Positions 25,370 to 30,275 of a stretch of DNA of 34,611 nt are shown here, piece by piece. Position 1 is the stretch's first letter. Every line of letters begins with the position of its first letter. The notes under the pieces are model-generated. The model ran no database searches, had not been told where the DNA came from, and was given only the letters and a program-made list of their open reading frames with translations. Where the stretch lies: the UHGV virus genome UHGV-0165227; one strand, given 5' to 3'. A program made the position numbers and the translations under genes. This DNA is from a virus.

Positions 25370-26230
25370 TCACCTGTCGAAAAACACGTAGCCAGTTTTC
25401 GATACGGTGATTGCGGATGATGGTTTGGATTGTGGTTGAATAGTTTCTGGCTTCTCGTCGTTCCAGCGCTGACCGTTCAGGTAGCTCGATGGTAACAACC
25501 TGTCGAATCCGAACTGCTTACCATTCCTGCATGCGATGTCTTCTGCTAGCATCGTGGCAAACTCGCTTGCCGTACCCCTGGTAGTTTTACGCCATTCCCT
25601 GAACTGTGTTCTGAATGCCGAAGCTGCGTTTTTCTTCCCGGCTTTCCGCATGCCTGCACACCAGAATATTTCCTCGAATGCCTTGTCGGTTTCTTCGTGA
25701 CGGTCAGGTGATTTTTCACACTCCGTCCGAACACTTTCGGACATAGTGTTTTTATTATTTCTTTTTTCTTTTGTAATAGTTTCTTTTGTGTGTCCCTGTT
25801 TTGGTGACAGCGCTGTCACCGTTTTGGTGACACTTTTTGTCACCAATGCAGTGACATTATCACCAGAGTAGTGACACCCTTCGATTTGCCATTCCTCGAT
25901 GTTCTTGTTAGGCCCGATTTGCTGGCCTTCGCGAAGGATAACCTTCATCGCGATAAGCTCATTCTTGGCCTTGTTTACCTTCTGTCTTGGCAGCCTGGTA
26001 ATTTGAGCTAACTGACTATCAGAGATGCGATCCATCTTTTTACCGTAGCCGTATGTTTTACGGCATATGGCGTGGGCAACCTTGCTCTGATTTTTCGTTA
26101 AATCTGCGCCGATAAGCTCTTCATACAGGGCATTTGCAAGACGGGTATAACCATCTTCAACTTCTGCCACACGACGCTCCACAGGCCGTTGTGAAGGCCT
26201 TAAATGTGTTACGGTTGCAAGATTACTCAT
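25370..26230 (-). CDS. Replication initiator, lambda O-like N-terminal domain
   Basis: GADLTK...RKTYG...MDRISDSQL...GPNKNI pattern as lambda O N-terminus; iterons inside gene. Confidence 0.7.
25749..25880. other. Candidate replication origin: GTGACA-type iterons (25797-25880) plus AT-rich tract (25749-25796) inside the O-like gene
   Basis: Perfect 18-bp palindrome GGTGACAGCGCTGTCACC (25803-25820) and at least four further GGTGACA/TGTCACC half-sites, flanked by a T/A-rich stretch. Confidence 0.55.
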
Positions 26231-28614: not shown

Positions 28615-28941
28615 ATGGATGCACAAGCACGCCGCCGCGAACGTCGCGCAGAGAAACAGGCTCAATGGAAAGCAGCAAATCCCCTGTTGGTTGGGGTAAG
28701 CGCAAAACCAGTTAACCGCCCTATTCTCTCGCTGAATCGCAAACCGAAATCACGAGTAGAAAGCGCACTGAATCCGATAGACCTTACGGTGCTGGCTGAA
28801 TACCACGAACAGATTGAAAGCAACCTGCAACGTATTGAGCGCAAGAATCAGCGCACATGGTACAGCAAGCCACGCAGTGAAATGGGTGTGACTTGTGTTG
28901 GTCGCCAGAAAATGAAATTAGGCAGCAAACCACTTATTTGA
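28615..28941 (+). CDS. N: Antiterminator N
   Basis: Arg-rich N-terminus MDAQARRRERRAEKQAQWKAANPLL, lambda N-like throughout. Confidence 0.9.
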   Translation: MDAQARRRERRAEKQAQWKAANPLLVGVSAKPVNRPILSLNRKPKSRVESALNPIDLTVLAEYHEQIESNLQRIERKNQRTWYSKPRSEMGVTCVGRQKMKLGSKPLI

Positions 28942-28949
28942 GGTGATAT

Positions 28950-29201
28950 ATGGAATTTCATGAAAGTGCGATTTGTGATTTTCGCGCTAACGCAAATTCA
29001 GTAAAACCACAGCCAATTGCAGTTCTTTTTAAAACAATGGGGGCGTGGGCTGTTTTATGCTTCGCCGCTGACGACACTGACGCAAGAATGGCAATAGGCC
29101 AAGAGATGGAGATGGACCCGACAAACGATGAATTCATAATTTATGGCGCTCCATCTAATTACTTACTTGATACCTGCAACATTTACAACAAGGCTGCCTG
29201 A
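28950..29201 (+). CDS. Hypothetical protein downstream of N
   Basis: GAGGTGA RBS before ATG 28950; 83 aa, no recognised family. Confidence 0.45.
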   Translation: MEFHESAICDFRANANSVKPQPIAVLFKTMGAWAVLCFAADDTDARMAIGQEMEMDPTNDEFIIYGAPSNYLLDTCNIYNKAA

Positions 29202-29260
29202 TGGTGGCCTTTATTTTTTGGCCGTAAATAATTTCATGCTTATTACAATCAAGGGGATAT

Positions 29261-29710
29261 ATGGAAGAACAAGCAAACAAGATTCTCGTAGAACTACTGC
29301 AAAAAGCCAGCAATGGAATAGACATGGCTGTTTCATTCAGCCAGGCGCAGATTCCTGATGTTGTTCATCAGTTGCTGCTATGGAATATGGTTGACAGTCT
29401 GATTAAAACATTAATAGCCATTCTAACAATCCCACTGGTTTTCTGGTTTATGAAGAAGCAGTGCCGAAGAGTTGAGACAGGTAAAATCGGTGATGAAGGA
29501 TATTCATGGGAGAAGGGAAATCCCAAATACAGGCCGACAATGGTTTGGGATAGCAAAGGTGATATTAATCTTCTTATCATGCCATTAGTTGTAGTTTTGG
29601 CTCTGTGGGGGATTTTTATTATTAGTGCAGTAACCAATATGACATGGTTAAAAATTTTGCTGGCTCCAAAGCTTTACCTTATCGAATATGCAGCATCATT
29701 GGTTAAGTAA
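29261..29710 (+). CDS. Two-pass membrane protein (149 aa), function unknown
   Basis: AAGGGGA RBS; two hydrophobic helices; followed directly by intrinsic terminator. Confidence 0.5.
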   Translation: MEEQANKILVELLQKASNGIDMAVSFSQAQIPDVVHQLLLWNMVDSLIKTLIAILTIPLVFWFMKKQCRRVETGKIGDEGYSWEKGNPKYRPTMVWDSKGDINLLIMPLVVVLALWGIFIISAVTNMTWLKILLAPKLYLIEYAASLVK

Positions 29711-29714
29711 TTTC

Positions 29715-29740
29715 AGGCCGCATAGTCGGCCTTTATTTTT
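29715..29740 (+). terminator. Intrinsic terminator
   Basis: AGGCCG / CGGCCT stem, 6-nt loop, TTATTTTT. Confidence 0.6.
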
Positions 29741-29859
29741 GGCATAAACAACAGAATAAACACTGCACTGTGTATTCATTCCAACGAGTGAATACACGGA
29801 GCAATGTCGCTCGTAACTAAACAGGAGACGACTTGTTCTGATTATTGGAAATCTTCTTT

Positions 29860-29885
29860 GCCCTCCAGTGTGAGGGCCTTTTTAT
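29860..29885 (+). terminator. Intrinsic terminator upstream of cIII
   Basis: GCCCTC / GAGGGC stem, 6-nt loop, CTTTTTAT. Confidence 0.5.
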
Positions 29886-29949
29886 ATGCATACCAATAAC
29901 GCTTCACTTGAGGCGTTTTCGTTATGCAATCAAACAGAAGGAGCATCCT

Positions 29950-30120
29950 ATGCAACAGTTCGCTATTGCAGGGGCGGCATCGGTTCGCCCTTTCAACCCG
30001 ATTTTATCGGTACAGCATTCACGAAAAAACATTTTAACCGGAGCAGACTTTAAACAACCAAGAATGAAAAGTTTGCTCGAAAAGCTTTGGGATATTTTGA
30101 AACAACAAGGCCGTCCATGA
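29950..30120 (+). CDS. cIII: CIII-like protein (FtsH inhibitor)
   Basis: AAGGAG RBS; MQQFAIAG...SLLEKLWDILKQQG resembles lambda CIII core; 56 aa. Confidence 0.6.
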   Translation: MQQFAIAGAASVRPFNPILSVQHSRKNILTGADFKQPRMKSLLEKLWDILKQQGRP

Positions 30121-30275
30121 GTTTTACAGATAACTGGTCAGACGAAGAATTCATTCGTCAGATGAAAGATTTAATCGGTAACGAAGGAGATATTCATGTC
30201 ACTTGCAACCACAGTGAAGGAGAGCAAGTTACAGAGACGCATGTACACGCAGAAAGCTCTCTGGTATCGCCATAA
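30117..30275 (+). CDS. Small acidic hypothetical protein (Kil position)
   Basis: ATG overlaps cIII stop (ATGA); 52 aa. Confidence 0.3.
   Translation: MSFTDNWSDEEFIRQMKDLIGNEGDIHVTCNHSEGEQVTETHVHAESSLVSP

Follow-up and report, generated by a model that had tools for sequence, protein, structure and literature searches.

A probable copy of the lambda small RNA PreS and its covarying upstream hairpin in the early-left operon of a lambdoid phage genome

Bacteriophage lambda encodes an Hfq-bound small RNA, LPR1, that was detected by RIL-seq during lambda infection and was later renamed PreS (Silverman et al., bioRxiv 10.1101/2024.10.31.621285, 2024). Its gene sits between ral and ea10; the RNA is Hfq-enriched and Hfq-dependent, its 3' end is the terminator tL2a, and northern blots reveal bands of ~88 and ~68 nt, the 68-nt species being a processed form (Silverman et al. 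2024). The RNA is present from 10 min post-induction and absent in lysogens. PreS opens the ribosome-binding site of dnaN, which encodes the host DNA clamp, and translation goes up, while alaS is repressed; deletion of PreS or of its seed lowers the phage yield 2- to 4-fold in an Hfq-dependent manner (Silverman et al. 2024). The biogenesis of PreS is not discussed in the preprint, which neither says if its 5' end is a primary or a processed one nor describes any hairpin.

The block that contains PreS had long been annotated under other names, as tL2a and as bsq4, and the sRNA itself is already known from the 2024 lambda preprint. In phage Sf6 (NC_005344) bsq4 is a segment of 113 bp equivalent to ~29764-29876 of the DNA analysed here, and covers the hairpin described below (H0) together with PreS up to the terminator stem. 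The Sf6 annotation treats bsq4 as a marker of a mosaic joint; the sRNA accounts for its conservation. Two prophage-encoded RNAs invite comparison. DicF of the Qin prophage is an Hfq-dependent sRNA that is cut out endonucleolytically from a longer operon transcript of the phage and acts on ftsZ and others; it has no sequence relation to PreS, and its targets differ. KilS of the Rac prophage (b4833; RefSeq, L130:6406-6503, E. coli K-12) is, like PreS, an sRNA with a terminator end (~98 nt) from an early-left operon, where it lies just upstream of kilR, and shows no evident sequence similarity to PreS.

The probable PreS copy, its parts and its neighbours

The DNA analysed here, referred to as the window, comprises 34,611 nucleotides of the virus genome UHGV-0165227. 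A first-pass annotation had drawn attention to the interval 29741-29885 as a segment free of ORFs, bracketed by two intrinsic terminators and carrying a perfect inverted repeat, which could encode a small RNA or a protein-binding site that insulates a cargo cassette from cIII. We regard this interval as the preS (lpr1) gene of a lambdoid early-left operon, not as an empty spacer, with a probability of roughly 85%. The stretch 29715-29950 is ~98% identical to the phage lambda ral-ea10 intergenic region, ea10 itself being missing here; in the alignment 29715-29885 correspond to the ral-ea10 intergenic region and 29886-29950 to the ea10-cIII spacer, with scattered differences only. Mapped via this alignment, the primers of the preprint (P810/P1103, 5' GAGCAATGTCGCTCGTAACT; P1104, 3' end; P969; Table S5 of bioRxiv 10.1101/2024.10.31.621285) place the sRNA gene at 29799-29885 on the + strand, a length of ~87 nt. 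The published 3' end reads ...GAGGGCGATTTTTTA, and the published full deletion begins directly after ...GAATACACG / ...GTGAATACACG (primer P969; Silverman et al. 2024). Compared with lambda, PreS in the window carries a single internal substitution (A29828) plus an altered terminator tail, CTTTTTAT here and GATTTTTTAT in lambda (also compared as GGGCCTTTTT vs GGGCGATTTTTT).

The genomic context is that of an early-left operon. The + strand carries, in this order, the N antiterminator (28615-28941, Pfam N36), an 83-aa ORF, a moron-like 149-aa cargo ORF (29261-29710; a full-length match to phrog_3054, function unknown, and no Pfam match), the PreS element and cIII (PHROG 550); beyond cIII follow a small ORF associated with the recombinase, the Rad52-like recombinase (annealing protein) itself and an SSB. 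PreS is found in the pL operon, on the pL-sense strand, between the N-proximal accessory genes and cIII. The window shares with lambda this early-left position, the tL2a terminator and an identical seed with predicted dnaN pairing; it differs in its upstream neighbour, which is the 149-aa cargo ORF instead of ral, and in the absence of ea10, so that the next terminator and cIII come immediately after tL2a. Rfam 15 yielded zero families at the gathering threshold for the whole window, and chance-level matches only at E <= 10 for 29100-30200. To our knowledge no Rfam family has been built for PreS, and the missing match is no argument against membership. Several other phage sRNAs were considered as the identity of this RNA and rejected: AgvB/AsxR (EcOnc), HnrS and PasA-D are all located in the late region and are unrelated, term searches of the svsR paper found neither PreS, cIII nor ea10, and KilS of Rac is a positional analogue only. 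In the K-12 Rac prophage, no PreS copy was evident in the pL-side segment examined.

Within PreS, the 5' block GAGCAATGTCGCTCGTAAC (29799-29817, + strand) is unchanged between lambda-type and P22-type BLAST homologues of 73-75% identity. To judge from the published length, this block is removed in the abundant ~68-nt form, whose 5' end would fall near 29817/18. A boxA-like CGCTCGTAA in the same block was considered as part of a reversed nut site and discarded, the pattern CGCTCNTAA occurring once in the window and at least once in 59 of 100 shuffles. The block is followed by an internal stem-loop, SL1 (29820-29837, + strand; AACAGG / CTTGTT, loop AGACGA), which is part of the RNAalifold consensus and in which two pairs are changed on both sides, from A-U to G-C, between the lambda and P22 types. 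The seed region (approximately 29834-29858, + strand), located with primers P970/P971, P838/P839 and P888/P889, is identical to that of lambda; mapped onto the window, the published seed deletion covers ~29834-29851 and the mutations M1 and M2 fall at 29838-29840 and 29848-29850. A duplex of this seed with nucleotides -48..-20 of the E. coli K-12 dnaN mRNA is predicted by RNAduplex at a dG of -21.5 kcal/mol; shuffled seeds reach -13.2 +/- 2.1 kcal/mol, and 0.2% of them are as good as the real one. Full-length PreS is predicted to fold in such a way that the conserved 5' block (GAGCAA.GUCGCUC) is paired to GAGACGACUUGUUC and masks the 5' part of the seed. This model suggests that loss of the first ~20 nt, as in the 68-nt form, would free the seed, and that processing might activate the sRNA.

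The 3' boundary of the gene is the terminator tL2a (29860-29885, + strand), which consists of GCCCTCCAGTGTGAGGGC (29860-29877, stem 29860-65/29872-77) and the T-rich tail given above; its homologue in the Sf6 record is labelled 'homology to phage lambda; tL2A'. The consensus scan recovered both bracketing terminators at the positions given previously, 29860-29885 and, upstream, 29715-29740 (29715-29732 AGGCCGCATAGTCGGCCT, tail TTATTTTTGG; + strand), and added a third that had not been listed, at 29898-29925 on the + strand (29898-29917 AACGCTTCACTTGAGGCGTT, tail TTCGTTAT). All three consist of a GC-rich stem-loop followed by a T run on the + strand. The third corresponds by homology to the terminator that lambda has between ea10 and cIII, and is presumably tL2b; in lambda ea10 separates it from tL2a, and BLAST matches are split into two pieces around that gene. 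The terminators of the tL2 cluster are ~430 bp apart in lambda, with ea10 between them, and 13 nt apart in the window. The proposal that the interval encodes a small RNA proved right as to the presence of the PreS/LPR1 orthologue and wrong as to its anatomy: the second terminator is the sRNA's own, and the 9-bp hairpin lies outside the sRNA.

The functions of the window copy are carried over from the lambda experiments and rest on the near-identical sequence. After prophage induction the PreS region would be transcribed within the early-left operon, and RNA 3' ends would form at tL2a (29860-29885), whose GC stem and U tail would act as the Hfq-binding module. The ~88-nt RNA would then be trimmed to the abundant ~68-nt form, and its single-stranded seed (~29834-29858) would pair with host mRNAs on Hfq; opening of the dnaN ribosome-binding site would raise beta-clamp levels and phage DNA replication, and alaS would be repressed. 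An efficient 3' end at tL2a sits awkwardly with the expectation that N-antiterminated polymerase should largely read through it.

A long TTG-started ORF (29845-30120) crosses two of these terminators. The earlier proposal that cIII starts later, at 29950, is borne out: the 56-aa cIII gene (29950-30120, + strand) has its ATG at 29950, preceded by GGAG 6 nt upstream (29940-43), and residues 1-56 match PHROG 550 ('CIII') from the first profile position (profile 1-46, E = 1e-22), with no Pfam match at E <= 0.01. The record of mEpX1 (JQ182727) contains a comparable case, in that its 'putative cIII protein' (CDS at L001:1631-1906) has a far-upstream TTG start and an annotated rho-independent terminator inside; the over-extended ORF runs through tL2a, as does the long ORF in the window. 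The statement that the interval holds no ORF is not literally correct, the ORF listing containing a 31-aa ATG ORF (29804-29899, + strand) and a 33-aa GTG ORF (29696-29797, - strand). The former is very probably non-coding because its ATG is an ATA in the alignment with diverged P22-type homologues and because it has zero Pfam or PHROG matches. That a small protein is made from this ORF, instead of or besides the sRNA, is scarcely credible. The ATG is preceded by a GGAG and the frame is open in lambda too, but the GGAG-ATG spacing is only 2 nt, the ORF crosses the tL2a terminator, and the P22-type homologues carry an insertion of 13-16 nt in addition to the lost start codon.

Hairpin H0 at the PreS 5' boundary

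Directly upstream of PreS folding and comparative evidence place an RNA hairpin, H0 (29764-29803, + strand), which contains the inverted repeat noted earlier. That repeat is indeed a perfect 9-bp one at the coordinates assigned to it, GTGTATTCA (29770-29778) and TGAATACAC (29789-29797) with a spacer of 10 nt. The core helix runs from C29768 to G29799 and comprises 14 pairs, including T29769·G29798 and T29779·G29788, closed by the loop CAAC (29782-29785). Below the core, on the far side of the mismatch A29767xA29800, nucleotides 29764-66 and 29801-03 form a lower stem. RNA structure prediction yields this 14-bp helix, and the segment 29741-29887 as + strand RNA has a folding energy of -47.8 kcal/mol (z = -4.9). 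H0 lies outside PreS and adjoins the sRNA 5' end, its last pair reaching the first PreS nucleotide G29799, and it has no downstream T run and is thus not a terminator. The perfection of the 9-bp repeat is by itself at chance level, since the window holds 2 perfect 9-bp inverted repeats with a loop of 3-12 nt compared with 1.3 +/- 1.2 in dinucleotide shuffles; the reality of the hairpin is based on comparative evidence. The second such repeat is located at 25824-25846 and consists of TTGGTGACA, a 5-nt loop and TGTCACCAA.

Homologous loci were collected from IMG/VR and phage records via the 19-mer at the PreS 5' end, a choice that is independent of the hairpin sequence. At all of the ~240 true loci obtained in this way a hairpin ends 0-1 nt before GAGCAAT, a few of them with a single stem mismatch. 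The hairpin is conserved across these homologous loci in pairing and not in sequence: the stems fall into five classes, TGTGTATTCATTC, TATAGCAGATT, TAATGACCATT, TAATGCGGA and TTATCGACTTTC, and homologues of 73-75% identity have a different hairpin at exactly the position of H0. By chance, an uninterrupted stem that stops at one given position would have a background frequency of 0.0055 for 9 pairs, 0.0012 for 11 pairs and 0.0004 for 13 pairs. Within one class a compensatory change from CAG/CTG to CTG/CAG is seen, and a further variant, TGGATACAC, pairs only as G·U. In an alignment of 36 sequences 91.6% of the cells are paired at the H0 positions, compared with 24-49% when the partner is slid, 9 of the 17 pairs are changed on both sides, and 0 of 500 shuffles reach the observed score, with the qualification that the changes are mostly whole-block replacements between the five classes and that independent compensatory events are far fewer than the 112 cells counted. 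RNAalifold recovers the H0 helix independently. We conclude from these comparisons that H0 is a selected RNA structure, conserved in pairing across lambdoid and P22-like phages and not in sequence.

The geometry of the element is conserved as well. Stem classes and sRNA bodies of the lambda and P22 types are found in reassorted combinations, and in 166 of 167 class-A hairpins PreS comes next at the fixed distance of 0-1 nt. The lone class-A exception is an IMG/VR locus (L325) that has lost both PreS and the terminators, so that the hairpin and GAGCAAT run directly into the ribosome-binding site of a lambda-like cIII. Of the four non-lambda classes, three (B, C and D) have an extended helix: their conserved flanks AGCGA...GCAC and GAGC...UCGCU pair with each other on either side of H0, which brings the PreS +1 to an internal loop within a long, irregular helix.

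The inverted repeat could instead be a DNA palindrome to which a dimeric protein binds, and serve as operator or insulator between cargo and cIII. The perfect 9-bp repeat with its 10-bp spacer has the appearance of such a site, and the occurrence of different palindromes at one place is reminiscent of operators of differing specificity. However, every stem class has two T·G positions that lengthen the helix in + strand RNA only, and TGGATACAC likewise pairs only as G·U; that G·U pairs function on the + strand alone suggests an RNA element in the pL transcript and speaks against a DNA operator. Moreover, the stem classes combine freely with the modules next to them, no DNA-binding gene was seen to co-vary with them, the half-sites stand at variable distances (8-10 bp), the loops differ in length, and a scan found no nearby promoter to regulate. 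We consider a DNA palindrome highly improbable, and the idea of a protein-binding insulator, as put forward in the first-pass annotation, finds no support in a stem whose sequence is swapped while its pairing is kept.

Origin of the PreS 5' end

Most likely the pL transcript is cleaved to generate the PreS 5' end, because 29741-29885 contains no promoter-like site, the would-be -10 region varies with the stem class and the RNA is lytic-only in lambda. The competing possibility, improbable in our view, is that PreS is transcribed directly from a promoter of its own, which would overlap H0 and turn the hairpin into a promoter-proximal element. The 5' nucleotide is a G and the upstream region is AT-rich, as such a start would have it; against this, promoter prediction on both strands, one of the checks suggested at the outset, returned zero sigma-70-like sites in 29741-29885, the -12..-7 hexamer is AGTGAA here and entirely different in other stem classes, and the lambda RNA is absent in lysogens and present <=10 min after induction, as expected for a pL-derived RNA.

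A mechanism for the cleavage is offered by analogy. In T7 R1.1-type sites RNase III cuts once, 3' of an internal loop; the downstream RNA is released, while the hairpin remains with the upstream RNA. Like these sites and the RNase III site of the lambda N leader, H0 combines an upper stem, an internal loop and a lower stem in a polycistronic early RNA; by the same analogy the downstream 5' end would lie at the 3' side of the internal loop and the hairpin would be left on the upstream RNA. The resemblance has its limits, in that the H0 of the window (14 bp, 1x1 loop, 3 bp) is shorter than classical RNase III substrates, which span about two turns and often have an internal loop where the cut falls, and we regard the resemblance as an analogy, not as membership. 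The sequence at the putative cut is CACG|GAGC, which is unlike the sites that RNase E prefers. A search of the available literature for RNase III sites in the lambda pL operon found nothing relevant. We put it tentatively, at somewhat less than even odds, that PreS has no promoter of its own and that H0 is a processing signal cut at its base, with RNase III as the best guess. An endonuclease would cut the polycistronic RNA at the base of H0 and thereby create the PreS 5' end, and after the cut H0 would remain at the 3' end of the upstream message and protect it.

Alternatively, H0 might mainly serve the upstream message, as a stabiliser against 3' exonucleases or as a ribosome or Rho insulator, and not PreS maturation. 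In P22-like phages H0 begins 5-6 nt past the stop codon of the upstream ORF with no terminator in between, H0 has no U tract and is no terminator itself, and the exceptional class-A locus retains H0 in spite of its deleted PreS. Set against these points, lambda and the window already possess a terminator hairpin ~30 nt upstream (29715-29740), which would make a second stabiliser redundant, and PreS follows at a fixed 0-1 nt after 166/167 class-A hairpins. We judge this explanation unlikely as the main role of H0; it is compatible with a role in processing and partly overlaps with it. The processing reading can be extended to a more comprehensive and slightly less probable proposal, in which H0 would be a dedicated sRNA maturation signal of fixed geometry (a closing T·G, a stem of 9-13 bp, 0-1 nt before GAGCAAT) whose stem has been replaced at least 5 times. 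In this proposal PreS would be cut out of the N-antiterminated pL transcript at the base of H0 by an endonuclease, probably RNase III, while H0 would stabilise the upstream cargo mRNA, and the 'boundary sequence' would be a self-contained unit of hairpin, sRNA and terminator onto which unrelated genes have been fused, even to the point of sharing a stop codon.

Distribution, mosaicism and meaning

The stretch 29735-29950 is present in 379 phage records (BLAST), most at 95-99% identity, among them lambda-like, Stx-converting, HK- and mEp-series and P22-like phages. The PreS element occurs in 2239 of 5426 complete E. coli genomes (~41%), in up to 6 copies. A match of 100% is found in strain DETEC-E601. 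None of the E. coli matches listed has an annotated feature under the match, and in the phage rows listed nothing beyond terminators, a boundary sequence or an overextended 'cIII' ORF is annotated in the PreS block. A separate 17-mer scan of genome contigs gave 86 matches, of which 22 passed a filter for PreS-like downstream sequence; the 17-mer is too short, and the scan added no diversity. Most of the 22 are identical to lambda and come from assemblies of unrelated taxa, including Pseudoxanthomonas, Shewanella, Chromatium, Bradyrhizobium, Pseudomonas, Neobacillus, Kitasatospora and others. In these contigs (L138, L147, L151, L155, L167, L169, L176, L182, L185, L188, L193, L197, L198, L201 and L209), several of which are short and of low coverage, PreS and ~160 nt of flanks are identical or nearly so to lambda, and they are almost certainly lambda control-DNA contamination of public genomes.

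The diverged P22-type PreS (L006, L007, L009 and many IMG/VR loci, e.g. L218 and L226) keeps the 5' 19 nt and SL1, and has a different seed (TTCTGGTTAATCGAAAAATC...), an extra stem-loop of 13-16 nt (ATCATCCCTTGAT) and a different terminator; chimeric forms exist, e.g. L075. To judge from these differences, the targets of P22-type PreS may differ from those of lambda PreS. Directly 5' of the hairpin, four unrelated ORFs (L006:341-541, L007:1042-1167, L008:1010-1168 and L009:507-1166) end in [S/C]-E-stop. The conserved block begins at GCGAATAA, before the stop codon, and the module therefore provides the last two codons and the stop for the fused gene.

Upstream of PreS in the window, the assignment of the 149-aa ORF to a cargo cassette is upheld by its absence from mEp234 and by the terminator repeat that flanks it. 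In mEp234 the terminator of the 83-aa ORF is followed directly by H0 and PreS. The terminator at 29715-29740, which is homologous to the lambda terminator just 3' of ral (lambda and mEp234 alignments), closes the cassette and belongs to it; its 3' half plus GGCATAAAyAA repeats directly the sequence after the terminator at 29190-29221. The resulting direct repeat of ~25 bp, GGCCTTTATTTTT(T)GGC.(T)AAA.AA, comprises the terminator 3' half and a linker and flanks the 149-aa ORF on both sides (29190-29260 and 29715-29760). This arrangement suggests that the cassette was inserted via recombination between terminator sequences.

Such mosaicism raises the question of whether the whole block is a passive joint, that is, a conserved boundary sequence with tandem terminators that serves as a recombination linker and yields no RNA product. 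Sf6 labels the homologous 113 bp 'bsq4; boundary sequence', BLAST homology breakpoints cluster at ~29765, 29799, 29883-87 and 29926, tL2a is followed by different inserts (ea10, Sf6 gene 33, or nothing), the cargo ORF is flanked by repeated terminator sequence, and unrelated upstream ORFs have their last two codons within the block. We nevertheless hold a purely passive joint to be very improbable: the corresponding lambda sequence yields a discrete RNA that binds Hfq, whose targets have been validated and whose deletion has a phenotype, and the compensatory changes in H0 and SL1 indicate selection on RNA. The two ideas are compatible, inasmuch as a conserved functional sRNA gene would double as a recombination linker.

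What is new here is modest, a covarying and sequence-variable hairpin at the PreS 5' boundary. The main value of the assignment lies in annotation, the block being as common as described above (~41% of the complete E. coli genomes, hundreds of phage records); naming it PreS corrects the start of cIII and explains the conservation of the 'boundary sequence'. H0, in turn, provides a testable handle on how PreS is produced from the pL transcript, a matter that the preprint left open.
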